Positions 1,321 to 27,296 of a stretch of 27,296 nt of DNA are shown in pieces. Numbering within the stretch: the stretch's first letter is position 1; the number at the start of each line of letters is the position of its first letter. The stretch comes from a virus (Duplodnaviria; Heunggongvirae; Uroviricota; Caudoviricetes), in the IMG/VR virus record IMGVR_UViG_2531839440_000002; one strand, written 5' to 3'. Under the pieces are notes generated by a model that saw only the letters and a program-made list of their open reading frames with translations, ran no database searches and was not told where the DNA came from. The position numbers were made by a program, and so were the translations under genes.

Positions 1321-1420
1321 GTTGAAGCCTGCTTTTTTATACTAAGTTGGCATTATAAAAAAGCATTGCTTATCAATTTGTTGCAACGAACAGGTCACTA
1401 TCAGTCAAAATAAAATCATT
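1321..1420. other. attL-type prophage junction: bacterial B arm, 15-bp lambda core GCTTTTTTATACTAA (1331-1345), phage P' arm
   Basis: Core read directly; downstream sequence GTTGGCATTATAAAAAAGCATTGCTTATCAATTTGTTGCAACGAACAGGTCACTATCAGTCAAAATAAAATCATTATTTG matches recalled lambda attP P' arm; upstream TGAAGCCT matches recalled attB side. Confidence 0.8.
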
Positions 1421-4751: not shown

Positions 4752-4999
4752 ACAGCTCCCCGTTTATTATTTATCTCCTCAGCCAGCCGCTGTGCTTTCA
4801 GGGGATTTCGGATAACAGAAAGGCCGGGAAATACCCAGCCTCGCTTCGTAACGGAGTAGACGAAAGTGATCGTGCCTATAAGTGGCTTCACAACAAAGCA
4901 AAGGTATCCCCTGAACATGTCGGCAGCATTGTTACGGCTACTGGTGGAGTTGTGAAGGCGTACCAGATTCGCCCGGATCTTCCGAAGTTGTTTCCACAC
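4724..4999 (-). CDS. Hypothetical protein; C-terminal part resembles lambda orf60a, N-terminal part differs (possible deletion junction)
   Basis: C-terminal ...TFVYSVTKRGWVFPGLSVIRNPLKAQRLAEEINNKRGAVCTKHLPLS matches my recollection of lambda orf60a; in lambda exo follows, here it does not. Confidence 0.3.
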   Translation of the reverse strand: MWKQLRKIRANLVRLHNSTSSRNNAADMFRGYLCFVVKPLIGTITFVYSVTKRGWVFPGLSVIRNPLKAQRLAEEINNKRGAVCTKHLPLS

Positions 5000-5101
5000 A
5001 CCGAAAAGAACGCAGCTTAAATTTCCATTTCACGCTCTTTAACAATAAGCAATCAACTTAACAGACTGATTAACAGTCAATTCAAACTAAAGGAATCAAT
5101 T

Positions 5102-5641
5102 ATGCAACCAATTACATACCAACAGACTAGCGGATTTACCCCGACTGCGGTGATAAATCGTTCTCAAACAAAACAGGCGCCAGGCCACGAAAAAATCCGT
5201 GATGCCGTTCGCGCCTGGTCGGCTGCAGATAATCAGGATGTTGTTGCCGCACTCATTGTGAATGAGTATCGGGAGCTGGGCGGCGGCACCATCGATTTCC
5301 CTGATGATGTCAGCCGTGCACGCCAGAAGTTGTTCCGCTTCCTCGATAACAAATTCGATTCTGAAAAATACCGAAATAACGTGCGTGAACTGACCCCGGC
5401 AATTCTGGCGGTACTACCGCTGGAATATCGCGGCCACCTGGTTGAGCAGGATAGCTTCATGGCTCGGCTGGTTGAAATGGAAAAGGAACTCAGTGAGGCA
5501 AAGCAGGCGGTCATTCTCAACGCACCACGCCACCAGAAACTGAAGGAAATGAGTGAAGGTATTGTGTCGATGTTTCGCGTGGACCCGGATCTGGCTGGTC
5601 CATTAATGGCGATGGTTACCACCATGCTGGGGGCAATATGA
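5102..5641 (+). CDS. Hypothetical protein (179 aa) directly upstream of O, in the position cII occupies in lambda
   Basis: ATG at 5102 with AAGGA about 8 nt upstream; stop overlaps an ATG at 5638 (ATGA); no motif recognised. Confidence 0.55.
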   Translation: MQPITYQQTSGFTPTAVINRSQTKQAPGHEKIRDAVRAWSAADNQDVVAALIVNEYRELGGGTIDFPDDVSRARQKLFRFLDNKFDSEKYRNNVRELTPAILAVLPLEYRGHLVEQDSFMARLVEMEKELSEAKQAVILNAPRHQKLKEMSEGIVSMFRVDPDLAGPLMAMVTTMLGAI

Positions 5642-5727
5642 CAGGTTCAGAAATGGCGAAAGTCGGTCTGCGGGAACAGAACCGACTTTCAGGTGCAAAT
5701 CGTAACGCACTCATTACGGGAGGAATT

Positions 5728-6657
5728 ATGGCAAACACTGCTGAGATATTCAATTTTCCAGTGCCGGATGTGGCACAAAAGGAGCCGCGCGTGGCAGATC
5801 TCGATGATGGTTATACGCGCATTGCAAATGAGTTGCTGGAAGTTGTAATGCTGGCCGGATTAACACAGCACCAGCTTCTGGTCTTCCTGGCTGTCATGCG
5901 CAAAACATATGGCTTTAATAAAAAACTGGATTGGGTGAGCAACGAGCAACTTTCCGAGTTAACCGGGATATTGCCGCACAAGTGTTCTGCTGCAAAAAGT
6001 GTTCTGGTAAAGCGTGGGATTTTAATTCAGAGCGGGCGGAATATCGGCATCAATAATGTGGTCAGTGAATGGTCAACATTACCCGAATCAGGTAAGAAAA
6101 ATAAAGTTTACCTGAAAGAGGTAAATTTACCTGAATCAGGTAAGAAAAGTTTACCTAAATCAGGTAAACGCCTTTACCCGAATCAGGTAAACACAAAAGA
6201 CAAACTAACAAAAGACAATATAAAACCTTTTTCGTCAGAGAATTCTGGCGAATCCTCTGACCAGCCAGAAAACGATCTTCCTGTGGTGAAACCGGATGCT
6301 GCAATTCAGAGCGGCAGCAAGTGGGGGACAGCAGAAGACCTGACCGCCGCAGAGTGGATGTTTGACATGGTGAAGACCATCGCGCCATCAGCCAGAAAAC
6401 CGAATTTTGCAGGGTGGGCTAACGATATCCGCCTGATGCGTGAACGTGACGGACGTAACCACCGCGACATGTGTGTACTGTTCCGCTGGGCATGCCAGGA
6501 CAACTTCTGGTCCGGTAACGTGCTGAGTCCGGCCAAACTCCGCGACAAGTGGACCCAGCTCGAAATCAACCGAAACAAGCAACAGGCTGGCGTGACAGCC
6601 GGCAAACCAAAACTCGACCTGACGAACACTGACTGGATTTACGGGGTGGAGCTATGA
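5728..6657 (+). CDS. O: Replication initiator protein O (lambdoid, non-lambda allele) containing ori iterons
   Basis: N-terminus MANTAEIFNF...RVADLDDGYTRIAN aligns with recalled lambda O (MTNTAKILNF...NVADLDDGYARLSN); GGGAGGA SD before ATG 5728; alternative upstream start at 5638; internal iterons and AT-rich tract. Confidence 0.85.
   Translation: MANTAEIFNFPVPDVAQKEPRVADLDDGYTRIANELLEVVMLAGLTQHQLLVFLAVMRKTYGFNKKLDWVSNEQLSELTGILPHKCSAAKSVLVKRGILIQSGRNIGINNVVSEWSTLPESGKKNKVYLKEVNLPESGKKSLPKSGKRLYPNQVNTKDKLTKDNIKPFSSENSGESSDQPENDLPVVKPDAAIQSGSKWGTAEDLTAAEWMFDMVKTIAPSARKPNFAGWANDIRLMRERDGRNHRDMCVLFRWACQDNFWSGNVLSPAKLRDKWTQLEINRNKQQAGVTAGKPKLDLTNTDWIYGVEL
6079..6190. repeat. Origin of replication: five dyad-symmetric iterons (consensus TTACCYGAATCAGGTAA) followed by an AT-rich unwinding tract
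   Basis: Copies at 6079-6095, 6109-6125, 6127-6143, 6151-6167, 6174-6190; each half TTACCTGA is the reverse complement of TCAGGTAA; AT-rich tract 6191-6235; encodes the ESGKK repeats in O. Confidence 0.75.
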
Positions 6658-7355
6658 AAAACATCGCCGCACAGATGGTTAACTTTGACCGTGAGCAGAT
6701 GCGCCGGATCGCCAACAACATGCCGGAACAGTACGACGAAAAGCCGCAGGTACAACAGGTAGCGCAGATCATCAATGGTGTGTTCAGCCAGTTACTGGCA
6801 ACTTTCCCGGCGAGCCTGGCTAACCGGGACCAGAACGAACTGAACGAAATCCGCCGCCAGTGGGTGCTGGCTTTCCGGGAAAACGGGATCACCACAATGG
6901 AACAGGTTAACGCAGGAATGCGCGTAGCCCGTCGGCAGAATCGACCATTCCTGCCATCACCCGGGCAGTTTGTTGCCTGGTGCCGGGAAGAAGCATCCGT
7001 TAACGCCGGGCTGCCAAACGTCAGCGAGCTGGTTGATATGGTCTATGAGTATTGTCGGAAGCGTGGCCTGTATCCGGATGCAGAGTCTTATCCGTGGAAA
7101 TCAAACGCGCACTACTGGCTGGTTACCAACCTGTACCAGAACATGCGGGCCAATGCGCTTACTGATGCGGAATTACGGCGCAAGGCTGCCGATGGACTGA
7201 CTTGTATGACCGCGCGAATTAACCGTGGTGAGGCGATACCTGAACCAGTAAAACAACTTCCTGTCATGGGCGGTAGACCTCTAAATCGTGCACAGGCTCT
7301 GGCGAAGATCGCAGAAATCAAAGCGAAGTTCGGACTGAAAGGAGCAACTGTATGA
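6654..7355 (+). CDS. P: Replication protein P (DnaB helicase loader), lambda-type
   Basis: 233-aa ORF MKNIAAQMVNFDREQMRRIANNMPEQYDEKPQVQQVAQIINGVF..., recalled as near-identical to lambda P; start overlaps O stop. Confidence 0.9.
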   Translation: MKNIAAQMVNFDREQMRRIANNMPEQYDEKPQVQQVAQIINGVFSQLLATFPASLANRDQNELNEIRRQWVLAFRENGITTMEQVNAGMRVARRQNRPFLPSPGQFVAWCREEASVNAGLPNVSELVDMVYEYCRKRGLYPDAESYPWKSNAHYWLVTNLYQNMRANALTDAELRRKAADGLTCMTARINRGEAIPEPVKQLPVMGGRPLNRAQALAKIAEIKAKFGLKGATV

Positions 7356-7633
7356 CGGGCAAAGAGGTAATTATTCATTATCTGGAGACGCACAAGAGCT
7401 TCTGTGCGCAGGACGTTGCTGCGGCAACAGGTGTGACAGTAACCTGCATAAATCAGGCAGCAGCTAAAATGGCGCGGGCAGGAATCCTGGTCATTGATGG
7501 TAAGGTCTGGCGAACGGTGTATTACCGGTTCGCTACCAGAGAAGAACGGGAAGGAAAGGTGAGCACGAACCTGATTTTTAAGGAGTGCCGCCAGAGTGCC
7601 GCGATGAAGCGGGTGTTGGCGGTATATGGGTGA
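7352..7633 (+). CDS. ren: Ren-like protein (possibly truncated at C-terminus)
   Basis: 93-aa ORF starting MTGKEVIIHYLETHKSFCAQD with ATGA overlap to P, as for lambda ren; sequence becomes AT-rich immediately after its stop. Confidence 0.65.
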   Translation: MTGKEVIIHYLETHKSFCAQDVAAATGVTVTCINQAAAKMARAGILVIDGKVWRTVYYRFATREEREGKVSTNLIFKECRQSAAMKRVLAVYG

Positions 7634-7927
7634 TTAGTTATTACTTGATTTGATGGTTATCTCGAAAACATCCAATCAAATTTAATGGTTTGCTTTGTGC
7701 GGGGAACTATAACAATGTTTCTAGCTTGGTGCTGTATGAATTAGTGAATTAGTAGGGAATATATCCACACATTGATTAACACAAAAATATTTTAGATATT
7801 AAATGTAACTCAAAGGATGAGTAATAATGGTTGTGTAGCGTATAACAGGATGCTGAGGTAGTATTAAACAATGAATAAATCTGATTGACAAGCACCAGAT
7901 AATACTGCGGGTCAATCATTAGACATG

Positions 7928-7962
7928 AACGCCACTAGTTACTGAGAGTAACTAATGGCGTT
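7928..7962. repeat. Near-perfect 16-bp inverted repeat (hairpin) 3' of the HD-domain gene
   Basis: AACGCCACTAGTTACT / gag / AGTAACTAATGGCGTT with one mismatch; no clear U-tract on either strand. Confidence 0.4.
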
Positions 7963-8003
7963 GTGTTTATAGTTAAGATGTTTTTTAAAACATCAGGGGG
8001 GCT

Positions 8004-8885
8004 CTACTTGTCTTTTTTAATATGATCAATCTCATCATTAAGACATTTATCTATTTTTTTTATTAACACATTAATTTCTTCGGTGTTTTGGAGTTGAGTT
8101 GTCTTAGAAACAAAAACTCGAATAAAGAATTTAACATAGTGATAGGGTTGAAGTACATCGTTATACTTACATAAATCATTTATTGTATACTTGCCGCCTG
8201 TTTCTTTTTTTATTATTTTAGCTTGACTTGTATCGATATCTTTAAAGTTATCTTCAATCTGAAAATCAAGAACCCATTCATCTTCTTTTAAATTATCCTC
8301 AATGATTTTGTTGATTTTCTTAGATATATTTTGTTTATATTTTTTGTATCTGTTGTCGGAAATGTTAACATTAGAAAACGTGTGTTTTTTTTCATATATT
8401 TTTTTCCAAACATTTCTATCAACAATATCTTGAATTATAGCTTGAGAATTTTTATCTAATGTGTTTTTAAGAGTGTTTTCTAAAAACGTTTTGTCTGGGT
8501 TTTCACGATAAAAGTGTTTGATGGACTCAATGAGAGTGTTTTTAGATTTTAAAGAGACAACATCATCAGTTTTTTTTCTAGAACACGCTTTGTTAAGCAT
8601 CGCAGATAGTGCACGATTGGTCTTATGAAAATAAACTTGACTATAAAGCCCACTTCTTGCATTGGCAAATTCTAGTATTGAATCCATACCACTTTCTTTA
8701 TATGCCAGGTAAACACTATTTTCAACTTTCACAGGAATAAATGACATTAATAATCGTCCATAATCATAAATCCCATATTTAACGCCGGAGAAGTAGCTAT
8801 CTCTAAGTAGGTAGTCCATTCTGTCCGCATCTATAGGTGAAGATGATATGATTGAACCTAATAAAGGATATACATTTACTCCCTC
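8004..8885 (-). pseudogene. HD-domain phosphohydrolase (dGTPase/SAMHD1-like), C-terminal fragment displaced by IS1
   Basis: Frame open from 8885 to stop at 8004; contains DADRMDYLLRDSYFSG motif; in frame with the N-terminal fragment once IS1 and one duplication copy are removed. Confidence 0.75.
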
Positions 8886-8940
8886 GGTGATGCTGCCAAC
8901 TTACTGATTTAGTGTATGATGGTGTTTTTGAGGTGCTCCA

Positions 8941-9216
8941 GTGGCTTCTGTTTCTATCAGCTGTCCCTCCTGTTCAGCTACTGACGGGGTGGTGCGTAAC
9001 GGCAAAAGCACTGCCGGACATCAGCGCTATCTCTGCTCTCACTGCCGTAAAACATGGCAACTGCAGTTCACTTACACCGCTTCTCAACCCGGTACGCACC
9101 AGAAAATCATTGATATGGCCATGAATGGCGTTGGATGCCGGGCAACAGCCCGCATTATGGGCGTTGGCCTCAACACGATTTTACGTCACTTAAAAAACTC
9201 AGGCCGCAGTCGGTAA
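8941..9216 (+). CDS. insA: IS1 InsA
   Basis: 91-aa [43 protein letters not shown]..., GTG start. Confidence 0.9.
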
Positions 9217-9638
9217 CCTCGCGCATACAGCCGGGCAGTGACGTCATCGTCTGCGCGGAAATGGACGAACAGTGGGGCTATGTCGGGGCTAAATCGCGCC
9301 AGCGCTGGCTGTTTTACGCGTATGACAGGCTCCGGAAGACGGTTGTTGCGCACGTATTCGGTGAACGCACTATGGCGACGCTGGGGCGTCTTATGAGCCT
9401 GCTGTCACCCTTTGACGTGGTGATATGGATGACGGATGGCTGGCCGCTGTATGAATCCCGCCTGAAGGGAAAGCTGCACGTAATCAGCAAGCGATATACG
9501 CAGCGAATTGAGCGGCATAACCTGAATCTGAGGCAGCACCTGGCACGGCTGGGACGGAAGTCGCTGTCGTTCTCAAAATCGGTGGAGCTGCATGACAAAG
9601 TCATCGGGCATTATCTGAACATAAAACACTATCAATAA
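9135..9638 (+). CDS. insB: IS1 InsB reading frame (transposase made as InsAB' by frameshifting)
   Basis: 167-aa ORF ...[44 protein letters not shown]...; overlaps insA. Confidence 0.85.
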
Positions 9639-9653
9639 GTTGGAGTCATTACC

Positions 9654-10328
9654 TACTCCCTCAATGTTATTTTTAAAATCATATCTTTTATCAACAATTT
9701 TTATAATGCTTTCTGGATTAATAGCCGCTATGTTTTCTTTATAGACATCGTCGTCATTTGATTTATCTTGGGCTTCATTTTTTAATTCTTCAATAATTTC
9801 TTTAATAAAAATACATGATACTTGTTCGTGGGTTAACTTGTCATTATCACTTAAAGATATAATCTTATCGTATTGTTTATTTCCTTCAGTTTTGCATTTT
9901 TCTTTGAAATCTTTTACGGATATTGCAAAACTATCGAATTGGTGGGCAAGTGGGCCATGCCCAACATCGTGTAACAATGCTGCAATACGTAACTCCTGTA
10001 TAAGACTTGAAGGCATTTTTTTTATATCTAAATATAGATCAATGCCCATATTTTTTCGATTGTAAATTAGTGCATTTAAATCAATATTTTTTAATATTTC
10101 ATACGATAAATGCATTACACCGACAGAGTGTTCAAAGCGAGAGTGCATTGCAGAAGGAAATACTTTATATAGAAACGTGTTCTGCCTGATATCTCGTAGT
10201 CGTTGGAATAAAGGATGGTCAATTATCTTTTTTTCTAGCTTAGTTATTCGAATCACTCCATGTATGGGATCTAAAAACTTCCCCAGAAGTAAGTCTTCAA
10301 AGTTCTCAAGTTTGTTTTTGTTTGTCAT
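9654..10328 (-). pseudogene. HD-domain phosphohydrolase (dGTPase/SAMHD1-like), N-terminal fragment interrupted by IS1
   Basis: ATG at 10326-10328; 225 codons up to the IS1 boundary; motifs HSRFEHSVGVMHLS and LLHDVGHGPLAH; the listed ORF 9573-10328 reads 26 codons into IS1 before stopping. Confidence 0.75.
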
Positions 10329-10389
10329 GAGGCTTTCCTTTTGCTGTAGTTATAATACGAAATTTAAATAGTAATGATGTTTATAGTTT

Positions 10390-10418
10390 CAATGTGTTAT
10401 CTAATGGTTAACACATTG
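10390..10418. promoter_or_regulatory. Dyad-symmetric element CAATGTGTTA-N9-TAACACATTG upstream of the HD-domain gene; candidate operator
   Basis: Perfect 10-bp inverted repeat arms read directly, about 60-90 bp 5' of the HD gene start. Confidence 0.3.
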
Positions 10419-10687
10419 TGATGTAGCATATCAATATGGATTCATATGTTCAATTGGTCTGTGGAGTTTAGTTATGAATAAGATTGATTCTGGTAATACT
10501 TTGTAGTTTAAGCTAGAGGCGGGATTCGTGATGTTCAAATCAGTATGTAATGGAGGTTGTGCATTAGTACTTGCTGCTGGAAATTAAAAATAAAGTTGCA
10601 AGTAATCGACGTTTTCCGAGAGGAGGATGTAAGCATCGCTGACCAAAAAGTATCAACGATGCCTGTTTTGTTTTAACTACAAATTAA

Positions 10688-12190
10688 TTAAATTGCATCT
10701 GCAAACTCTGGGATTTTTCGCTCAAGTATGATTGATGAGTTGCTGTTGTCGCTTTTTTTATTTTCATGATTACGAATAGCCAATGACTCATTAAAGTCTT
10801 TTGCGACTGCTGTCTCAATAAATTCAATTTCTGAATCAGAGTGTTTTTTAACAGCTTCTTTGATCTCATCCAGAGTAACATAGAAAAACTCTTTTCTACG
10901 ATTTACAAGATTGACTCTCTTTTTATCGAAGACATCATGTAGTTCTTTTTCTAATGATGGAGCGTCCTCCGAATAAATCATGGCATGCACATCAAAAATA
11001 AAAGGAACAGATGCATCACCAAGCTCATTTACACGGTCTTGTGGATCAAGACGTCGTGTCATGCCTATTTTATAAACATTCTCCCCAAAAGAACCTATGT
11101 TCGAAATAATATAAACATGACCTTGTTTGGTTTGTTGTGCCATGGATAATGCTCTTTGATGCTTTGATTCAGCCTGCGACAAACTCTGTTCTAGTTCGGC
11201 AATGCGATTTTCGAGGCGCTGCTTCATGTCACCAGTAACTTTTTCCATTTCCTTTCTTGCAGCTTCAATTGCTTTTTTATAACGGCGCTCTTCTGCCTCT
11301 GCGTCTTGCATGGCCTTTTCTATTTCTCGTTGTGCACGCTCCTCCTCTCTCATTTGTGCCCTTATTTCTGCCTGTTCTTCTTTTTCTTTCTGTTTTTGCT
11401 CACGATATTCATGGGTAAGCCACAACTCCTCAAGTTTTTTATTAAGGTATTTAGTATTTATATATATGTGATTTTGCTCGTTTAGTTTATTTATGGCCTC
11501 AAATGCCTTTGTGATGCGTTCTTCCATTTTAGTGATATTTTTCCACGTGCAATTACTAATTGCAGCATCACATTCATTATTAAATGCTCTAGTAGTTAGC
11601 CTAATATTTCTGTCTGTCATTTTTTTACCCTCTGCTCGAGAGCCTTCAACAGTCCATTGGGTTGTGCAATATACTGCACCAGAGTGGGTTTTATCCCGCA
11701 GCATTAATTTCTGTTCATCCCTGATGGATTTTATTTTGTTTTTAAATTGCTCTGAATCTTCAAAATTAAAATGAGGTTCGTAAAATCCTAGTTCGGCTAG
11801 TTCAACATCTTCTGAATAAATAGAAATTTGCTTTACTAACTTATCATATATTTCTTTCTTCTCTTTATAAGTTCTTCTTAGTTCTTGGATTTGTTTATTG
11901 ATACCATCCATTTTTTCAATGGTGTTTGTTAGTTCATTATTGGCATTTTCTTTTACTTTTTGGGACTCTTCTTTTATAATGGAGCATTCTTGCTCTGTTT
12001 TCTCAATAAGCTTCTTACATTCCTCTTCCATATTAAAATAATCTGCAAAGCGAGATTTGTATTCTTCATTTTTTTGATTGCTATCACTTAATTCTAATTG
12101 TATTTTTTTGATGCGTTTGATTGCAGCTATATATAGAACAAGAACAACCAATAAAAATATGATTGCAAGTAATAGTGGAGTTTGAGTCAT
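10688..12190 (-). CDS. Membrane-anchored coiled-coil protein with DUF4041-like central region and C-terminal T5orf172 (GIY-YIG-like) domain; candidate defence protein
   Basis: 500 aa; N-terminal helix PLLLAIIFLLVVLVLYIAAI; long K/E-rich heptad segments; C-terminal GHVYIISNIGSFGENVYKIGMTRRLDPQDRVNELGDASVPFIFDVHAMIY...; AT-rich. Confidence 0.8.
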   Translation of the reverse strand: MTQTPLLLAIIFLLVVLVLYIAAIKRIKKIQLELSDSNQKNEEYKSRFADYFNMEEECKKLIEKTEQECSIIKEESQKVKENANNELTNTIEKMDGINKQIQELRRTYKEKKEIYDKLVKQISIYSEDVELAELGFYEPHFNFEDSEQFKNKIKSIRDEQKLMLRDKTHSGAVYCTTQWTVEGSRAEGKKMTDRNIRLTTRAFNNECDAAISNCTWKNITKMEERITKAFEAINKLNEQNHIYINTKYLNKKLEELWLTHEYREQKQKEKEEQAEIRAQMREEERAQREIEKAMQDAEAEERRYKKAIEAARKEMEKVTGDMKQRLENRIAELEQSLSQAESKHQRALSMAQQTKQGHVYIISNIGSFGENVYKIGMTRRLDPQDRVNELGDASVPFIFDVHAMIYSEDAPSLEKELHDVFDKKRVNLVNRRKEFFYVTLDEIKEAVKKHSDSEIEFIETAVAKDFNESLAIRNHENKKSDNSNSSIILERKIPEFADAI

Positions 12191-12616
12191 TCGTGCTATT
12201 CCTTACGGACAATTTAAGACGTTTTGTATTAAATCCTGTTCAATGTGTATGCGGGTGATTGCTACCGCTTACAATCTTCATAATTATCAGTTAGATAGAC
12301 TCGCTAGTAAATAATTTCATTTTTTGCAATATTCTTATTGAATATTTCAATTTATGAAATGAGCTCTTTATCCTTTCAAGGCGAAAGGTTTCTTCTTCGG
12401 AAATATTTGCTCTCGTGTGACGTATAAAGGCCTTTGATTTTTAAAAAACAGTAGGAAATAATATAGTTACAGTCGGCCTGAACACCCGGCGGTGGGGTTG
12501 CGCTAAACGGGGACGTTTATGCGCACATACAATCTAAACTCTCTTCTCCCTTCACAGATGCAGAAATGCACCTGCGATTTTTTGCATCCAACGTTTGACC
12601 TCTGCGGAGGTGAAGC

Positions 12617-13072
12617 ATGAACCTACCACAAGATGGCATCAAATTACATCGTGGCAACTTCACCGCTATCGGCCAGCAGATCCAGCCTTATCTGGAGGAC
12701 GGAAAATGCTTTCGCATGGTGCTTAAACCGTGGCGTGAGAAACGCAGTCTTTCCCAGAGTGCACTCAGCCACATGTGGTACAGCGAAATCAGTGAATACC
12801 TTATCAGCAGGGGTAAAACGTTCGCCACTCCAGCTTGGGTAAAAGATGCTCTCAAACACACATATCTCGGTTATGAAACCAAAGACCTGGTTGATGTCGT
12901 AACCGGTGATATCACCACTATCCAGTCGTTACGCCATACCTCCGACCTTGATACCGGAGAGATGTATGTCTTCCTGTGTAAGGTTGAAGCCTGGGCGATG
13001 AATATTGGCTGCCACCTGACTATTCCGCAGAGCTGCGAGTTCCAGCTGCTGCGTGATAAGCAGGAGGCGTAA
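12617..13072 (+). CDS. ybcN: YbcN-like lambdoid nin-region protein (151 aa)
   Basis: [58 protein letters not shown]... recalled as DLP12 YbcN family; GGAGG SD upstream. Confidence 0.65.
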
Positions 13073-14021: not shown

Positions 14022-14106
14022 AGTCAGAGATAACAATCAACTAATACTGTTTTGTTGATTTTTGCTTGTAATTGGCGTTCTGGTCTGAGTTTTGTGGAGT
14101 AAGTTG

Positions 14107-14484
14107 ATGCGTGATATTCAGATGGTTCTTGAGCGTTGGGGAGCGTGGGCGGCTAATAATCATGAAGATGTGACCTGGTCGTCCATTGCCGCCGGTTTTA
14201 AGGGATTAATTCCTTCAAAAGTAAAATCTCGCCCACAATGTTGTGACGATGACGCGATGATCATTTGCGGGTGCATGGCCCGTCTGAAAAAGAACAACAG
14301 CGATTTGCATGATTTATTGGTGGACTATTATGTCGGCGGCATGACTTTTATGGCGCTTGCACGTAAGCATGGGCGATCTGATTGTTGGGTTGGCAGGATG
14401 CTCCAGAAAGCTGAGGGCGTAGTGGAGGGTATGCTGATGGTGTTGGATCTCCGATTGGAGATGGATGCTGATTGTTCGAAATAA
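14107..14484 (+). CDS. Late-gene antiterminator Q (phage 82 / DLP12 QuuD-type)
   Basis: ATG at 14107 preceded by GGAG; [36 protein letters not shown]...; the ORF-track start at 14092 is a TTG. Confidence 0.75.
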
Positions 14485-15111: not shown

Positions 15112-15141
15112 GTAAGCGTCAACGGAGCACCGTATTGACGC

Positions 15142-16754
15142 TTATTTATTGGTGAGTACTACGTTCCATGGCAGGAGTTCGTCAACACGGTTGGAGGGCC
15201 ATTCCGGCAGTACGCTCAGAATATGGCGCAGATACGCTTCCGGATCGATACCGTTCAGACGGCAGGTGCCGATCAGCCCGTACAGCAGTGCTCCACGCTC
15301 GCCGCCGTGATCGCTACCGAAGAACACGTAATTTTTCTTTCCGAGACAGACTGCACGAAGCGCTCTTTCCGCTGTGTTATTGTCCACCTCCGCCAGACCG
15401 TCATCACTGTAATAACAGAGGGCGTCCCACTGATTCAGTACATAGCTGAACGCTTCACCCAGTCTGGATTTTTTCGACAGCGTGCCATTCTTCTCCACCA
15501 TCCATTCATGCAGCGACGTCAGTAACGCTTTGCTTCGCTGCTGCCTGGCTGCAAGACGCTCTGACTCTGGTAATCCCCGTATTTCATCCTCGATGGCGTA
15601 CAGTTCACTGATTCGCTTCAGGGCTTCTTCTGCCGTCGCACTTTTGCTGCTGATGTATACATCGTGGATTTTTCTCCGGGCATGAGCCCAGCACGCAACT
15701 TCTGTCAGCGCACTACCTTCACGTTCTGCACTGAACAGCCTGTCATAACCTGTGAACGCATCCGCCTGCAGGATACCCCGGAAGGGGCGGAGGTGTTGCT
15801 CCGGGTGTTTCCCCTGCCGGTTCGATGAGTACGCGAACCAGACCGCCGGAGGAGATGACGAACCCGCATTGCGATCATCCCGGACATACGTCCAGATGCG
15901 CCCTGTTTTCGTCTTTTTCAGGCCCGGTGCCAGTACCTTTACCGGTGTGTCGTCAGTGTGAAGCTTGCGGGTATTCATCACATAACGGTACAGGGCATCA
16001 TTCAGCGGCGTCATTAACTGGCAGCACGCGTCAACCCAGTTGGAGAGTAATGCACGGCTCAGTTCGACACCCTGTCGGGCAAAGATTTCACTCTGACGAT
16101 ACAGTGGCAGGTGTTCGCAGTATTTTCCCGTTAACACGCGGGCAAGTAATCCGGGGCCCGCGATACCACGCTCTATCGGGCGGGACGGCGCCGGTGCTTC
16201 AACGATGCAGTCACATTTTGTACAGGCTTTTTTACCCGTTCTGTGCGGATCACTTTCAGGGCGCTGCTCACCAGTTCCAGTTGTTCTGCGCTGACTTCCC
16301 CCAGATAATCCAGCTCACCGCCACACTCCGGGCAACAGCTTTCTTCAGGCTCCAGGCGGTATATTTCACGGGGAAGGTGTGCCGGTAACGGACGACGATG
16401 GCGCGACTGTCGCAACTGGCGGGGAACCAGCGGGTCATCCTCACGCCCACTGTAACGATCGCTTTCCTGCTCGCGTTGTTTCAGCAGGGCTTCAGCCTGT
16501 TCAACCTCACGACGCAGTTTTTCAGAACGGGTTCCGAACAGCATCCGGCGCAGTTTTTCTATCTGAGCCCGCAGATGCTCTATTTCTCGCTCATCTTCTT
16601 CGATCTTTTCTTCGGCACGTGCCAGTGCAGAGCGCAGGAAGGCCTCCGTCTCTTCAACCAGACTCAGTTGCTGGTCTTTCTGACGGAGGGCTTCAGCCTG
16701 CTCAGAGAGCAGCCTTTCCAGCTCAGCGATGCGAATGAGGTATTTCTGACTCAT
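15142..16754 (-). pseudogene. IS66-family transposase TnpC, split into two reading frames by a frameshift
   Basis: N-terminal ORF 16173-16754 (coiled-coil plus CxxC zinc-finger region) and C-terminal ORF 15142-16137 (DDE region); span length 1613 is not a multiple of 3. Confidence 0.75.
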
Positions 16755-16784
16755 GGCCGTTTTTATAATCCGGCCCGGCGTTTT

Positions 16785-17135
16785 TTACAACATTGTCAGT
16801 GCGTTAAGGCGGGATGTTTTTGGCTGACGCCAGTCCAGCTTATCGAGGAGCATTGCCAGTTGCGAGCGGGTAATGGATATCTTACCGTCACGCACCGCAG
16901 GCCAGATAAACTGACCTTCCTCAAGGCGTTTGGTGAACAGGCACAGACCATCAGCATCAGCCCACAGGATTTTAATCGTGTCTCCCCGTCGGCCACGGAA
17001 GATAAACAGGTGACCGGAGAAGGGGTTATCATCCAGCACATGCTGTATCTGCTCCCCCAGACCGTTGAAGGATTTACGCATATCAGTAACGCCGGCAACG
17101 AGCCAGATACGGGTACCTGATGGGAGTGAAATCAT
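16785..17135 (-). CDS. IS66-family TnpB (orf2)
   Basis: 116-aa ORF MISLPSGTRIWLVAGVTDMRKSFNGLGEQIQHVLDDNPFSGHLFIFRGRRGDTIKILWAD... Confidence 0.85.
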   Translation of the reverse strand: MISLPSGTRIWLVAGVTDMRKSFNGLGEQIQHVLDDNPFSGHLFIFRGRRGDTIKILWADADGLCLFTKRLEEGQFIWPAVRDGKISITRSQLAMLLDKLDWRQPKTSRLNALTML

Positions 17136-17566
17136 CGTCCCCTCCCGGTCAGCTCACGGATCAACACCGTGAGCAGCTCTGGTGAAGGATTTTCCAGCAT
17201 CATTTTACCGTAATGGAATTCCGCATGGCAGGAAGCTGCACAAGCAACTGATAATGCCTCCGGAGCAGGAGCATCTGTAGCACAGCGCGGGGTGTCGATA
17301 AGTTCCACTGGAACCAGAGTCGGAGAGGCCGGAAAAGATTGTGATACTGTAGGGCCTACAATAGTTGGAGGCATTCTACGGGAAATACGTCCTTCTCTTT
17401 GCCAGAGGCGTAGCCATTTAAAAATCAGGTTGTTATCAACGCCATGTTCCCGGGCCAGTTGTGCAACATTGGCATTTGGTTTCGAAGCCAGTTCAACCAT
17501 ATGAAGTTTAAATTCATTAGAAAATATCCGGCGGGTTCCGGAGCGCCAGTCTGTAGGTTTATCCAT
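17132..17566 (-). CDS. IS66-family TnpA (orf1)
   Basis: ATG at 17564-17566 (track start 17569 is TTG); MDKPTDWRSGTRRIFSNEFKLHMVELASKPNANVAQLAREHGV...; overlaps tnpB start. Confidence 0.8.
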   Translation of the reverse strand: MDKPTDWRSGTRRIFSNEFKLHMVELASKPNANVAQLAREHGVDNNLIFKWLRLWQREGRISRRMPPTIVGPTVSQSFPASPTLVPVELIDTPRCATDAPAPEALSVACAASCHAEFHYGKMMLENPSPELLTVLIRELTGRGR

Positions 17567-17651
17567 CAATAGAACTCCGTCTAATTTAGAAGGAGCTCTA
17601 ATTTAGTCTGCAAGGAGCAGGTGTTACAGACGGCATTGGCTTTACGCTTAC

Positions 17652-18864: not shown

Positions 18865-19020
18865 TTGTATGCGATATCATCCAAAAGGATGAGTTCCTGC
18901 ATGCAGGATATTTACAATCGTAAAAACTACACTATGATACCCAGAGTGTCAGTTTGTATAAAAACTCTGTTTACGCTGAAGAAACCATTGAGATGCAACT
19001 TAAAGTTGGTGTATTTGCCC

Positions 19021-19926
19021 CTATATTTCCAGACACCTGTTATCACTTAACCCATTACTGGCCCGCTGCCGTAGATATTCCCGTGGCGAGCGATAACCCA
19101 GTGCACTATGCGGATGCCATTCGTTATAATGCTCGAACGCCTCTGCAAGATTCTTTGCTGCCGTTAACCCGTCTGGTTTGGGCATGATACTGATGTAATC
19201 ACGCTTTATCGTTTTCACGAAGCTCTCTGCTATGCCGTTACTCTCCGGACTCCGCACCGCCGTGTTCTTCGGTTCAAGTCCCAACATCCGAGCGAACTGG
19301 CGTGTTTCATTAGCCCGGTAGCATGAACCATTATCCGTCAGCCACTCCACTGGAGATGTCGGAAGCTCGCTGCCGAAGCGGCGTTCCACCGCTCCCAGCA
19401 TGACGTCCTGTACTGTTTCACTGTCGAAGCCGCCCGTAGTGACCGCCCAGTGCAGTGCCTCACGGTCACAGCAGTCCAGCGCGAACGTGACTCGCAGTTT
19501 TTCTCCGTTATCACAGCGGAACTCGAACCCGTCAGAGCACCATCGTTGATTGCTTTCTTTCACGGCCACTTTGCCAGTATGTGCCCGTTTCGATGGCGGT
19601 ACAGCGGTTTTTCGCTCAAGCAACAGCGCATTCTGGCGCATGATCCGGTAAACACGTTTGGCATTGATAGCAGGCATACCATCAAGTTCGGCCTGTCTGC
19701 GAAGCAGCGCCCATACCCGACGATAACCATACGTGGGCAGCTCTCCGATAACATGGTGTATACGGAGAAGCACATCCGTATCATCTGAGTGACGGCTGCG
19801 GCGACCATCTTTCCAGTCATCGGTTCGTCTGAGAATGACGTGCAACTGCGCACGCGACACCCGGAGACAACGGCTGACTAAGCTTACTCCCCATCCCCGG
19901 GCAATAAGGGCGCGTGCGCTATCCAC
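19021..19926 (-). CDS. insD: IS2 transposase OrfB
   Basis: 301-aa ORF with DDE-type region ...WCSDGFEF...DNGSCY... Confidence 0.9.
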
Positions 19927-20249
19927 TTTTTTGCACGCCCGTATTCAACGGCTTCTTTAAGGAGTTCATTTTCCATCGTTTTTTTGCCGAGCAGGCGCTG
20001 GAGTTCTTTAATCTGCTTCATGGCAGCAGCAAGTTCAGAGGCAGGAACGACCTGCTCTCCTGCGGCCACAGCAGTAAGACTTCCCTCCTGGTATTGCTTG
20101 CGCCAGAGAAATAACTGGCTGGCTGCCACACCGTGTTGCCGGGCAACAAGGGAGACCGTCATTCCCGGTTCAAAGCTCTGCTGAACAATAGCGATCTTTT
20201 CCTGTGTAGTACGCCGTCTGCGTTTCTCCGGCCCTAAGACATCAATCAT
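19884..20249 (-). CDS. insC: IS2 OrfA (helix-turn-helix)
   Basis: 121 aa from [47 protein letters not shown]...; the track ORF begins 15 codons upstream. Confidence 0.85.
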
Positions 20250-20551
20250 CTGTTCTCCAATGACTAGTCTAAAAACTAGTATTAAGACTATCACTTATTT
20301 AAGTGATATTGATTGTCTGGAGATTCAGGGGGCCAGTCTAGTTGGTAAACATGCCAGTCAAAATATATAATATTATGATTCCACGCAGCTATATATAATA
20401 TAACAGATTGGTTTAATAATTTGTCTTTGTGAGTTAAATACATAATTTTATACTTGTGATGCAATGAGATTTTCCTTATTGTTGAACTGGCGAATATTGA
20501 TTTTCCACCTATACTTACCTGGTGTAACCCCAATGATATCAGGTGGATAAT

Positions 20552-23603: not shown

Positions 23604-23640
23604 ATTACAAAGCCCATTTACGGGTGGGCTTGATAATGAA
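23604..23640. repeat. Hairpin element A (AAGCCCA-N8-TGGGCTT followed by GATAATG)
   Basis: Inverted repeat read directly; similar element B at 23900-23940. Confidence 0.3.
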
Positions 23641-23899
23641 ACCGGAATTTATTCTGGGCCACCAGTTAACGGCAGTACCACGAAACAACCCAAGCCAGTA
23701 AGTGGGGAAATAACACCGGCAGCCACTGAAAGATGAACCTCCTGCCTTATGGCAAAAAAGATTCTTTGTGGTGGCGGACTGATGGAAAGACATCCTAATT
23801 TCAGCCAAACATTGAAGAAGTTGTTATGTCAGCAGAAGGTTTCAATAACCCATCAAAATTCCGGGATGAGTGGGATAGCAGCGTAAAGAGTAAGTGATG

Positions 23900-23940
23900 C
23901 CATCACAAAAGCCATTCCCTACAGAGTGGCTTTGATAATG
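23900..23940. repeat. Hairpin element B (AAAGCCA-N12-TGGCTTT followed by GATAATG)
   Basis: Imperfect direct copy of element A, about 295 bp downstream. Confidence 0.3.
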
Positions 23941-23979
23941 GCTTATACCCTACACGGGATAACTTAACTGATATCCCTT

Positions 23980-24144
23980 TTAAAGGATAAAGGTATTCAA
24001 GCCTGACACATCATGCGCTGTATCGTCGCCGTATTCCCGTATTAACAGAGACCGTAGCCCGACGGGGAACTCCTTCTGCGCGAGTGTGCGGGAATAATCA
24101 AAAACGATGCACACCGGGGTTACCGGGTACACATATTTCATCAT
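23980..24144 (-). CDS. Small hypothetical protein (54 aa), not in the ORF track
   Basis: ATG-ATG at 24144; translation MMKYVYPVTPVCIVFDYSRTLAQKEFPVGLRSLLIREYGDDTAHDVSGLNTFIL; ordinary composition, no obvious SD. Confidence 0.3.
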   Translation of the reverse strand: MMKYVYPVTPVCIVFDYSRTLAQKEFPVGLRSLLIREYGDDTAHDVSGLNTFIL

Positions 24145-24189
24145 GCCAGCGAGTCCGGTTCTGGCACGGAAGAAACCGGACGTTATGAT

Positions 24190-24600
24190 TTAGTGCGGAA
24201 ATATTTGTGTAGTGTTCTGAATGTTCTCAGTAAAGAGTAATGAATTATCAAAGGTATAGTAATACCTTTTGTTTTCGTGGATATTTGTAATCCATCTGAA
24301 AACCCCTGCTGTAGCAAGATTTTTTCTGTATTCGTAAAATGATAACTCTCCTGATTTGAATCCTTTTAAGGTGGCTTCTATAAGGCATTTATTTTTTGAA
24401 AATCTTACATTTACAACCTTACCCTGTCCTTTTATTAAAACCGTATTATCGTTTTCAAGAACAAGATGAATATTCTCTGTGGCTAAATAGTAAATGTAAT
24501 GTGAGACATTGTGACGTTTTAGTTCAGAATAAAACCAGTGATAGTTTAAATTATTTCGCACTTTATCGAATATTTGTTTAAAAATGGCAACCTGAGCCAT
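24190..24600 (-). CDS. ybcV: YbcV-like (DUF1398) prophage protein
   Basis: [58 protein letters not shown]... recalled as DLP12 YbcV; track start is 5 codons upstream. Confidence 0.6.
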
Positions 24601-24656
24601 TGTAGTACCTTCCATGTGATATGAGGGGCGTAGTCTGCACGATTATCTAAATTGCT

Positions 24657-24890
24657 TCAATCTGGTCTAACCTGTTTTCTGAGCAATTCAGTAATGTCAC
24701 TCTTTTCTTTGTTTGCTTCAGGCGAAACTCTTTTTTCTGAGCACAGTCTCCGGCGGCAGGCTTCAATGACCCAGGCTGAGAAATTCCCAGACCCTTTTTG
24801 CTCAAGAGCGATGTTAATTTGTTCAATCATTTGGTTAGGAAAGCGGATGTTGCGGGTTGTTGTTCTGCGGGTTCTGTTCTTCGTTGACAT
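24657..24890 (-). CDS. Small DNA-binding-like protein (YlcI-like, ribbon-helix-helix-type)
   Basis: 77-aa ORF; ...RFPNQMIEQINIALEQKGSGNFSAWVIEACRRRL resembles ribbon-helix-helix proteins. Confidence 0.45.
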   Translation of the reverse strand: MSTKNRTRRTTTRNIRFPNQMIEQINIALEQKGSGNFSAWVIEACRRRLCSEKRVSPEANKEKSDITELLRKQVRPD

Positions 24891-25088
24891 GAGGTTGCCC
24901 CGTATTCAGTGTCGCTGATTTGTATTGTCTGAAGTTGTTTTTACGTTAAGTTGATGCAGATCAATTAATACGATACCTGCGTCATAATTGATTATTTGAC
25001 GTGGTTTGATGGCGTAGATGCACGTTGTGACATATAGATGATAATTATTATCATTTTGCGGGTCCTTTCCGGCGATCCGACAGGTTAC

Positions 25089-25101
25089 GGGGCGGCGACC
25101 T
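25089..25101. other. Lambda-type cos site (cosN cohesive-end sequence GGGCGGCGACCT) about 190 bp upstream of Nu1 start
   Basis: ...CAGGTTACGGGGCGGCGACCTCTCGGGTTTTCGCTATTTATGAAAATTTTCCGG matches recalled lambda right-end/left-end junction with one substitution. Confidence 0.7.
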
Positions 25102-25278
25102 CTCGGGTTTTCGCTATTTATGAAAATTTTCCGGTTTAAGGCATTTCCGTTCTTCTTCATCGTAACTTAATGTTTTTATTTAAAACACCCCCTGAAAAGA
25201 AAGGAAACGACAGGTGCTGAAAACGGGCTTTTTGGCCTCTGTCGTTTCCTTTCTCTGTTTTTGTCCGTGGAATGAACA

Positions 25279-26712
25279 ATGGAAGTCAACAAAAAGCAGC
25301 TGGCTGACATTTTCGGCGCGAGTATCCGTACCATTCAGAACTGGCAGGAGCAGGGAATGCCCGTTCTGCGGGGTGGTGGGAAGGGTAATGAGGTGCTTTA
25401 TGATTCTGCCGCCGTCATAAAATGGTATGCCGAAAGGGATGCTGAAATTGAGAACGAAAAGCTGCGCCGGGAAGTTGAAGAACTGCGGCAGGCCAGCGAG
25501 ACAGATCTCCAGCTACCTTCTGCCCGTAAGGTGAATGGTAAGGCGCTTTCAGCGGATATAACACTGACACCGAAAGATATTGGTACGCTTAACTCAACAA
25601 CTATGTCATTCAGCGGTGGTGCTGGTTGGTTCAAATTAGCAACGGTAACCATGCCGCAGGCGAGTTCTGTTGTTTCAATTACGTTGATTGGTGGGGCTGG
25701 ATATAACGTCGGTTCACCTCAACAGGCAGGTATATCTGAACTTGTTTTGCGTGCAGGTAATGGTAATCCGAAGGGGATTACTGGTGCTTTATGGCAGCGC
25801 ACATCGGCAGGGTTTACAAATTTTGCCTGGGTCAATACATCTGGTGATACTTACGATATTTACGTTGCAATCGGAAATTATGCGACTGGTGTAAATATTC
25901 AATGGGATTATACCAGTAATGCCAGCGTAACGATTCATACGTCACCAGCATATTCTGCTAATAAGCCGGAAGGGTTAACGGACGGTACAGTTTATTCACT
26001 CTATACGCCATCAGAGCAGTTTTATCCGCCTGGCGCACCAATCCCGTGGCCATCGGATACCGTTCCGTCTGGTTATGCCCTGATGCAGGGGCAGACTTTT
26101 GACAAATCTGCCTACCCGAAACTTGCAGTCGCTTATCCGTCAGGCGTGATCCCTGATATGCGTGGCTGGACGATTAAGGGCAAGCCCGCCAGTGGTCGTG
26201 CCGTATTGTCTCAGGAGCAGGACGGCATTAAATCGCACACCCACAGCGCCAGCGCATCCAGTACGGATTTGGGTACGAAAACCACATCGTCGTTTGATTA
26301 CGGCACTAAATCCACGAATAACACCGGGGCGCATACGCACAGTCTGAGCGGCTCTACAAGCTCGGCCGGAGCACACTCGCACGTTGATGGTCGCAGGTTT
26401 AATACAAGCACTTTTAAAGACACCTATCAGTATGGTTCTACAGCTGTCGGAAGTAACTCATACCAGGTACAAGGGGTGGTTGGTCTGGGCATTGGCACGA
26501 TGGCGAATACGAACTCTGCTGGCGCGCATACCCACTCACTGTCCGGCACTGCTGCAAGCGCAGGTGCACACGCACATACTGTCGGTATTGGTGCACACAC
26601 GCACTCCGTTGCGATTGGTTCACATGGACACACCATCACCGTTAACGCTGCTGGTAACGCGGAAAACACCGTCAAAAACATCGCATTTAACTATATTGTG
26701 AGGCTTGCATAA
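25279..26712 (+). pseudogene. In-frame fusion of terminase small subunit Nu1 N-terminus (about 78 aa) to the C-terminal about 400 aa of side tail fiber Stf; deletion scar
   Basis: N-terminus [74 protein letters not shown] matches recalled lambda Nu1; junction near 25513; C-terminus has tail-fiber HxH repeats and ends [11 protein letters not shown] before tfa. Confidence 0.75.
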
Positions 26713-27296
26713 TGGCATTCAGAATGAGTGAACAACCACGGACCATAAAAATTTATAATCTGCTGGCCGGAACTAATGAATTTATTGGTGAAGGTGACGC
26801 ATATATTCCGCCTCATACAGGTCTGCCAGCAAACAGTACCGATATTGCACCGCCAGATATTCCGGCTGGCTTTGTGGCTGTTTTCAACAGTGATGAGGCA
26901 TCGTGGCATCTCGTTGAAGATCATCGGGGAAAAACCGTCTATGACGTGGCTTCCGGCGACGCGTTATTTATTTCTGAACTTGGCTCGTTACCGGAAAATG
27001 TCACCTGGTTATCGCCGGAAGGGGAATATCAGAAGTAGAACGGCACAGCCTGGGTGAAGGATACGGAAGCAGAAAAACTGTTCCGGAGCCGGGAGGCGGA
27101 AGAAACAAAAAACAGCCTGATGCAGGTAGCCAGTGAGCATATAGCGCCACTTCAGGATGCTGTAGATCTGGAGATCGCAACGGAGGAAGAAACCTCATTG
27201 CTGGAAGCCTGGAAAAAATATCGGGTGTTGCTGAACCGTGTTAATACAACAACTGCACCGGATATTGAATGGCCAACAGTACCCATTATCGAATAG
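26712..27296 (+). pseudogene. tfa: Tail fiber assembly protein Tfa with in-frame amber codon at 27036-27038
   Basis: [37 protein letters not shown]... then ...[22 protein letters not shown]... continuing in the same frame to a stop at 27294-27296; lambda Tfa has Trp at that position (recall). Confidence 0.75.

Follow-up and report, generated by a model that had tools for sequence, protein, structure and literature searches.

The IMG/VR virus record IMGVR_UViG_2531839440_000002 (27,296 nt; the whole of this stretch of DNA was analyzed and is referred to here as the window) is a lambdoid prophage located at the classical att-lambda site, and extends from ybhC to the stop codon of the tail fiber assembly gene tfa (27296). 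Downstream of its cos site, the window contains an open reading frame (ORF) in which the beginning of the terminase gene nu1 is fused in frame to the distal part of the side tail fiber gene stf. The stf side of this joint coincides to the nucleotide with a breakpoint, GGTCGGG^TA, that recurs in many other lambdoid prophages, and the joint was most likely made by conservative site-specific recombination at this specific stf site. Taken as a whole, the explanation that the ORF is a relic of prophage decay, that its joint was produced in a site-specific manner at stf and that the resulting allele was later copied between prophages is considered probable.

The two parts of the chimera can be assigned with precision. 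Residues 1-78 of the ORF are identical to residues 1-78 of lambda Nu1 at 77 of 78 positions, the match to the Pfam family Phage_Nu1 (PF07471) is restricted to profile positions 1-78 of 164, and the structures PDB 1J9I and PDB 6HN7 cover ORF residues 1-68 and 1-79, respectively. Residues 79-477 align to residues 543-942 of the intact 942-amino acid Stf encoded by the prophage of Escherichia coli O55:H7 CB9615 (397/400 identical) and include a Collar domain (PF07484) at residues 252-299 as well as an end similar to the T4 gp37 tip (PDB 2XGF, residues 235-477, E=8e-88). In the DNA the switch occurs exactly between 25513 and 25514 (...GATCTCCAGC|TACCTTCTG...), with nu1 identity through 25513 and stf identity from 25514, where the stf side begins TACCTTCTGCC. 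Every intact relative loses homology at 25513, and the stf 3' part differs by 0-2 per 100 nt from L005 (from 20001 onward). The nu1 and stf parts abut with neither filler nor a shared base, and because each gene was interrupted one base into a codon, the reading frame carries through the joint, an outcome that is expected by chance for one joint in three. All 477 codons are open and the stop codon TAA (26710-26712) overlaps the ATG of tfa at 26712. An initial annotation of this region had described an intact ORF with about 78 Nu1-like residues, a switch near 25513, a Stf-like C-terminus and an end at tfa, all of which was borne out by the alignments. The microhomology that it proposed to look for at the breakpoint was not detected there (0 nt, or at most the A of the TA core).

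That the junction recurs in a closed genome, that of E. coli TOK-001, and in seven NCBI assemblies (11 contigs) rules out an assembly artifact. The chimera of TOK-001 differs from that of the window at 3 residues, and the identical junction is annotated in that genome by the Prokaryotic Genome Annotation Pipeline (PGAP) as two partial pseudogenes. Over window positions 23605-27296 there are 17 differences from TOK-001, 11 of which are clustered within 300 nt of stf (25981-26274); the window agrees with CB9615 at 10 of these 11, which suggests a small conversion patch in TOK-001 originating from another stf copy. The stf-tfa region of the window is itself a mosaic, CB9615-like to ~26,900 and like the att-lambda relative from ~26,600 onward.

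The extent of the loss was established by comparison with an intact relative, the prophage of E. coli 2018-11-3CC, which occupies the same chromosomal att-lambda site. Its homology to the window stops at exactly 25513, after which it continues with the rest of nu1 in the order nu1-A-W-B-C-D-E-FI-FII-Z-U-V-G-T-H-M-L-K-I-J-lom-stf. What the window lacks is the remainder of nu1, every gene from A to lom and the initial 58% of stf, a loss of ~20.8 kb and 21 annotated coding sequences (nu1 joint at L006rc 3786; the stf site maps to ~24621). Since the intact relative diverges at exactly 25513 into the nu1-to-stf genes, one joint accounts for the loss of all morphogenetic genes. The single nu1-to-stf deletion proposed initially is upheld to that extent; it was not, however, an ordinary random deletion, given that its stf end is a recurrent, nucleotide-precise site.

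The hot-spot search began from L002, a defective prophage whose joint between J and stf starts at the same stf nucleotide. An exact 25-mer starting at window 25514 was used as a query to scan IMG/VR, metagenomes and E. coli genomes. Normal stf sequence (...AATGCGAATGGTCGGG) was found upstream of the 25-mer in ~99 of the 125 loci examined; the other loci displayed 23 different foreign left flanks, all of them abutting the same T. Among these flanks are sequences from nu1, A, K/L, lom and ylcI, from two places in J and three in stf itself, from early genes, from Rac ynaK and from non-lambda terminase, gpW, portal and capsid genes. No junction was observed at positions -6 to -16 of the interval examined beside the 25-mer. 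A second, unrelated stf cassette (K-12 stfQ type) has only CNAAWGGTCGGG^TA (C-N-A-A-W-GGTCGGG^TA) in common with the first, its site-bearing segment reading CAAAAGGTCGGGTAACC as an alternative to the cassette-1 version. This cassette was detected in 87 normal contexts and in 13 junction types at the same T, K-12 nohA^stfQ among them. In total, 36 different junction types in the two cassettes start at the same T of GGTCGGG^TA, and a joint is carried by roughly 1 in 5 loci of one cassette and 1 in 7 of the other. The 9-mer GGTCGGGTA was not found in the rest of lambda or in three reference prophages.

Among hundreds of intact E. coli stf alleles, the constant part is ~87% identical up to ~11 nt before the hot spot (compared with L005 19801-19989) and the alleles diverge thereafter, so that the site lies at a natural mosaic border of stf. 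Some loci carry in-frame internal stf deletions at the hot spot: in L118, Stf residue ~93 is joined to the distal cassette, and in L003, 76 residues of the repeat region were removed. The shortened fibers of both might still work. The joints that link this site to A and to J do not preserve the frame, indicating that the reading frame is not selected.

The partners of the hot spot provide information on the nature of the event. For the left partners with a known parent sequence (n=18), TA comes next in the parent in 15 cases, T alone in two and neither in one. TA represents 3% of the dinucleotides in the lambda late region (P ~1e-20 for the TA excess). Since 15 of 18 partners continue with TA, the events are TA-to-TA joins that keep a single TA. 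Beyond the TA, the partner flanks resemble those of the hot spot weakly (p = 0.01-0.05). Scans for the left half-site joined to foreign DNA returned two real cases, L290 and L279, and otherwise chance hits. The former is a rightward TA-to-TA deletion into a downstream tfa fragment. In the latter, stf...GGTCGGG-TA is followed by the reverse complement of a portal gene. L041, which comes from the sample that yielded L279, has the neighboring stretch of the portal gene, likewise as reverse complement, followed by TA-CCTTCTG.... When both contigs were rejoined in silico, the portal gene aligned to an intact one over 992 nt with no gap; L279 and L041 are thus the two products of a reciprocal inversion in which no base was lost or gained. 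Altogether, the crossover is nucleotide-precise with a 2-bp core common to both partners, and both outcomes were seen, deletions in the leftward and rightward directions and inversion, the latter only once and in one sample.

A reciprocal inversion with no base change argues for conservative site-specific recombination rather than for break repair or slippage. The joint would have been formed by such a reaction at 5'-C-N-A-A-W-GGTCGGG^TA-3', at the constant/variable border of stf, with a secondary site as the partner that would need little beyond TA. The need for a matching 2-bp core and the occurrence of both deletion and inversion point to a serine recombinase, a class assignment that the 2-bp core suggests. 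The excess of leftward deletions could be a matter of target size, with ~40 kb of dispensable DNA on the left vs 2-5 kb on the right, and products that keep the GGTCGGG half would stay substrates for more recombination. Serine DNA invertases such as Cin of phage P1, acting at cixQ (and also Gin, Hin, Pin and PinQ), recombine a true site with quasi-sites. They resemble the hot spot in acting at the constant/variable border of a fiber gene, in the matching 2-bp core, in producing deletions and inversions between one good and many poor sites, and in being conservative and reciprocal. The hot spot differs from pix, gix and cix in its sequence, in its TA core, in the conservation of one half-site and in having no partner site or invertible segment.

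Several observations weigh against this proposal. The dyad symmetry usual for serine-recombinase sites is not present: only the left 12 bp are common to both cassettes, and the right halves differ between cassettes and are not inverted copies of the left. No second copy of the site was found nearby in either orientation, and neither an inverted nor a direct second 9-mer occurs downstream in 102 loci or near pinQ. No recombinase was found to be linked to GGTCGGG^TA. Among loci that extend far enough, 23 of 57 in one cassette and 26 of 44 in the other (about half in all) have a gene 98% identical to K-12 pinQ immediately downstream of tfa and in the opposite orientation, and a pinQ-like gene also follows the copy of the chimera in the cryptic prophage Qin (L415). 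According to Kirigo et al. (2025, PMC12529663), PinQ and PinR are active invertases whose substrates are the pix sites of e14; these pix sites are unlike the hot spot. In addition, the evidence for the reciprocal inversion consists of two contigs from a single metagenome sample, and none of the complete E. coli genomes contains the inversion junction. Finally, the window's own junction is the only case of the 18 in which the partner has neither TA nor T, the nu1 parent having CA at this position (a one-base mismatch with the core).

Considering both sides, it is tentatively proposed, as a reading that falls a little short of an even chance, that GGTCGGG^TA (half-site CNAAWGGTCGGG) is the crossover site of an unrecognized conservative system with a 2-bp TA core, possibly served by a prophage- or host-encoded serine recombinase, PinQ/PinR being the nearest by location. 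Such a system would have repeatedly removed or inverted lambdoid morphogenetic genes, would constitute a major directional route of prophage domestication and would have made both the Nu1-Stf chimera and K-12 nohA-stfQ.

A site-specific break at GGTCGGG^TA followed by microhomology joining is one alternative. In this scheme the 3' end ...GGTA primes at a TA elsewhere while one end stays fixed, and the nuclease could be a Gabija GajA-like enzyme, a free-standing HNH endonuclease (lambda ea31) or a one-ended transposase. The fixed right end and variable left end of the junctions agree with it, as does the terminal microhomology (T, TA, TAC, TACC, up to TAACCGCG), which is anchored at the junction. 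The site also fits the nicking motif of GajA, TNNNC^GGGNNA (PMC8136825), with one mismatch, but a GajA-type nick would sit 3 nt left of the observed joint. No insertion sequence (IS) end is present at the site in 36 contexts, no stable hairpin is predicted (z ~0) and the site resembles cosN no more than expected by chance. Break repair is not expected to give a reciprocal inversion that leaves every base in place, and this alternative is regarded as unlikely.

A plain illegitimate deletion, arising by replication slippage or end joining independently of any recombinase and with a breakpoint of no special meaning, would be consistent with the lack of microhomology at the window junction and of a TA in its nu1 partner. 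Packaging-to-fiber deletions are also common in cryptic prophages (K-12 DLP12 and Qin, ZY22049, strain 300490). Against this, the stf end equals that of 35 other junction types to the nucleotide, in two cassettes, and a random endpoint in a 2.8-kb gene would fall at that base about once in 3000 cases, which leaves a plain deletion very improbable.

Other candidate explanations for the site were tried and rejected. A Din invertase site, of the kind represented by pix, gix, cix and hix, is a 26-bp sequence, ...AAACC-NN-GGTTT..., read as (E/Q)NLGL in the fiber gene and present as an inverted pair. The e14 pix sequence (AAACCTTGGTTTGGGAGAA) differs from the hot spot in sequence and reading frame, and there is no inverted partner at the hot spot. 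A mimic of cos at the stf site (GGTCGGGTACCT vs cosN, 9/12) was discarded on the grounds that ~12 such matches per 27 kb are expected by chance, and a hairpin or other structure on the basis of z-scores of ~0. A transposon end was dismissed as well: no inverted copy of the retained end is found within several kb and no IS end abuts the site in the 36 contexts (IS1 lies 26 nt from the site in one contig only). For an integration site of another element, the left-half scans gave chance hits except for one inversion partner and one rightward deletion. Type I-E CRISPR (clustered regularly interspaced short palindromic repeats) self-targeting and RecBCD/Chi protection do not fit the geometry of the protospacer adjacent motif and of Chi, and would not yield nucleotide-precise ends. 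A scan of a species-representative genome collection with the degenerate motif produced only chance matches in unrelated phyla.

The Nu1-Stf architecture is already known, and the window represents a further Qin-like joint. In Qin of K-12 the order is ydfO-ynfO-cos-nohA-stfQ-tfaQ-pinQ; as in the window, a nu1 homolog (nohA, which overlaps stfQ) is joined to an stf 3' fragment followed by tfa, the head and tail genes are all missing, and the stf-side breakpoint falls at the same GGTCGGG^TA motif (...GAGTGAATA|TAACCGCG). In the MG1655 locus (L137, 1635798-1636367) the junction reads ...GAGTGAATA|TAACCGCGCTGACAGAC and the nu1 parent continues with TA. K-12 Qin differs from the window in keeping 176 residues of the nu1 homolog (break at nt 529), in an out-of-frame fusion and in having the other stf cassette. 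In DLP12, nohD adjoins tfaD, and further independent nu1-to-stf joints are present in other strains. The window shows the features of a Qin/DLP12-type cryptic prophage, that is, a nu1 homolog beside stf/tfa remnants, no head or tail genes, and other lesions of decay.

With regard to function, the chimera preserves one module of each parent. Its first 78 residues are 99% identical to lambda gpNu1 and comprise the complete winged helix-turn-helix domain (1-68), which by its sequence would bind the R elements of cosB. Lambda Nu1 residues 79-181 carry self-association and gpA binding. In contrast to gpNu1, these residues are absent from the chimera (profile positions 79-164 are missing), and the A gene is absent from the window. 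Similarly, the distal 399 residues are 99% identical to those of an intact prophage Stf, including the Collar domain and the His-rich, gp37-like receptor-binding needle, whereas the N-terminal 543 residues of Stf, with the tail attachment domain ("prophage tail fiber N-terminal domain") and the Ala/Ser-rich shaft, are missing (the alignment starts at 543/544). The downstream tfa is interrupted by a TGG->TAG change at 27037 that gives rise to ORFs of 108 and 80 amino acids; the TGG is kept in TOK-001, in CB9615 and, within the same set of strains, in the Qin copy, and tfa is intact in TOK-001 and in the Qin copy. The candidate small-RNA family IS009 of Rfam (RF02111) matches positions 27055-27253 (+), in the 3' half of tfa, with 220.8 bits, and apparently corresponds to tfa coding sequence. 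With the assembly and gpA-binding region missing and no gene for gpA present, the chimera could not serve as a terminase subunit; with no attachment domain, no tail and a broken tfa, it could not serve as a tail fiber either.

The possibility raised initially that the chimera could be expressed is compatible with its open frame and is otherwise doubtful. Late transcription needs Q, which has neither early promoters nor N and, with the repressor, pL/pR and the 5' end of cro deleted, is left with no known promoter; IS66 and IS2 elements lie in the path, and tfa carries the amber codon. A weak promoter-like match was detected at 25025-25054, and such matches occur near chance expectation. Judging from its sequence, the chimera is most likely a non-functional relic. 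A point against this is the complete identity of the 477-amino acid sequence across seven assemblies and between both loci, yet the assemblies are near-clonal and the tract was recently copied. That the fusion was domesticated, with the Nu1 DNA-binding domain and the trimeric fiber tip kept for a function such as cos interference against incoming lambdoid phages or StfE2-like receptor masking, might be argued from this intact and fully conserved ORF, from its native nu1 ribosome-binding region and from the precedent of chimeric Stf fragments reported to block T2 adsorption (PMC12529663), but is very improbable considering that near-clonality and the recent 2-kb copy explain the conservation, that TOK-001 differs at 3 residues, that the frame is lost where this site is joined to A or J, that tfa has an amber codon and the early promoters are missing, that the protein has neither a signal peptide nor a tail-attachment domain, and that PGAP calls two pseudogenes.

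The cos site was preserved upstream of the ORF, as had been described, with cosQ, the cosN 12-mer and the cosB elements R3, R2 and R1 in the same order as in lambda at the sequence level. Position 25089, from which the region had been said to start, is the last base of the lambda right end, and the cosN 12-mer starts at 25090. The heptamer GGGTCCT is taken to be cosQ from what is known of lambda cos, and the names and consensus of the cosB R elements, putative here, are likewise adopted from lambda. The window has 9 differences from lambda over lambda positions 1-190. Base 25103, two bases past the cohesive-end 12-mer, is T instead of the G of lambda, DLP12 and 2018-11-3CC, and a G->A change at 25143 affects the R3-like element; these substitutions might weaken cos cleavage or Nu1 binding. 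As far as its elements can be read, the site looks usable by a helper phage.

The same chimera is also found in a second prophage. Within assemblies GCA_000354395 to GCA_000354555, 11 contigs encode precisely this 477-amino acid protein; some share the context of the window (two are 100% identical to it). On other contigs the chimera resides in Qin, after rzpQ-cspI-gnsB-ydfO-ynfO and before an intact tfa, a pinQ-like gene, ynaE and ynaM. When Qin copies (L415, L416 and L417; GCA_000354435.2, GCA_000354515.2) were compared with window 24152-27275, a tract of ~2 kb was identical (Table 1) and both of its flanks were diverged (92 differences in 24152-24790 and 37 in 26790-27275). This pattern of identity between diverged flanks marks a conversion tract, and the deletion allele was thus copied between the prophages at att-lambda and Qin. 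Copying would proceed by homologous recombination through the common cos/nu1 and stf/tfa flanks, and such a double crossover would remove 21 kb in one step with no new illegitimate event. While one joint explains the loss, the deletion attributed at first to this prophage may therefore have arrived by homologous exchange with Qin and not in situ. TOK-001 has the att-lambda copy only. One further contig, L414 (GCA_000354555.2 AQCO01000099.1), combines a Qin-type left flank (cspI, gnsB, ydfO) with an att-lambda right flank (amber tfa, GGDEF gene, ybhB); either the chromosome has been rearranged between the two copies or the contig was mis-joined across the 2-kb repeat.

Other parts of the window are decayed as well (Table 1). 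In the closest complete genomes, genes for a diguanylate cyclase, ybhB and bioA come next after tfa. Compared with 2018-11-3CC, a joint at 4878 marks the loss of exo, bet, gam, kil and cI, of the control region between cI and cro and of the 5' end of cro, pL and pR having been deleted together with the repressor and the start of cro. The segment missing at this joint (4876-4878) corresponds to L007 6580-10121, which takes in the operator region, the repressor (S24 family) and 86 nt at the start of cro; TOK-001 has the same joint plus a further deletion from 4907 to 12837. The HD-domain gene hit by IS1 encodes 514 amino acids in the intact relative and has no match in PADLOC, and the transposase ORF of the IS66-family element is only 330 amino acids long and is probably disrupted. 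The PD-Lambda-1 defense gene is a possible reason for the retention of the defective prophage.

Table 1. Position of the chimera, of its cos region and of other features in the window.
Feature	Position	Strand	Description
ybhC	1-1284	minus	
Lambda-type integrase	1419-2489		
IS1	8886-9653		Inside HD-domain gene (window 8004-9653) next to PD-Lambda-1
PD-Lambda-1 defense gene	10688-12190	minus	Open, intact 499-amino acid DUF4041/T5orf172 protein, PADLOC E=4.6e-198
Q	14092-14484		Open; lysis genes likewise open
IS66-family element	15113-17651		Between Q and lysis genes
IS2	19011-20339		Between Q and lysis genes
Identical tract	~24800-26790		ylcI 5' part, cos, whole chimera, tfa start; 0 differences to Qin copy; bounds approximate
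cosQ GGGTCCT (presumed)	25060-25066	+	Identical to lambda 48473-48479 in alignment
cosN cohesive-end 12-mer GGGCGGCGACCT	25090-25101	+	Sole exact match in window; aligned to lambda 1-190
cosB region and nu1 leader	25102-25278	+	
R3-like element (putative)	25142-25157	+	CATTTCC vs CGTTTCC in lambda
R2 (putative)	25198-25213	+	
R1 (putative)	25239-25254	+	
Chimeric ORF Nu1(1-78)::Stf(544-942)	25279-26712	+	477 codons, open throughout
nu1 5' part	25279-25513	+	235 nt; winged-helix DNA-binding domain plus 10 residues
stf 3' part	25514-26712	+	Codons 544-942 of CB9615-type stf: distal shaft, Collar domain, gp37-like His-rich tip
TA	25514-25515	+	Inferred crossover core of recurrent site; GGTCGGG half lost in window junction
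tfa pseudogene (tail fiber assembly chaperone)	26712-27296	+	Amber TAG 27036-27038, codon 109

Viewed in isolation, the chimera is simply another prophage gene in decay, and its main value is in correcting annotation, one 477-codon ORF being set against two pseudogenes. A literature search for the motif and for a tail-fiber deletion hot spot returned nothing relevant, and no description was found of the recurrent GGTCGGG^TA site or of the TA-to-TA conservative rearrangements. The usual account of prophage decay is one of random deletions on which selection acts as a filter. In the samples examined here, a defined 12+2-bp site accounts for 36 independent rearrangements, each of which keeps the receptor-binding fiber tip, tfa and usually cos and the lysis genes, and removes virion genes. 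The identical 2-kb tract in two prophages shows, in addition, that homologous recombination carries deletion alleles from one resident prophage to another. Should an enzyme be responsible, the grounding of prophages at the stf site would be in part a catalyzed, repeatable reaction and, if true, this would explain the wide persistence of fiber-tip and tfa modules, which are raw material for host-range exchange with infecting phages.

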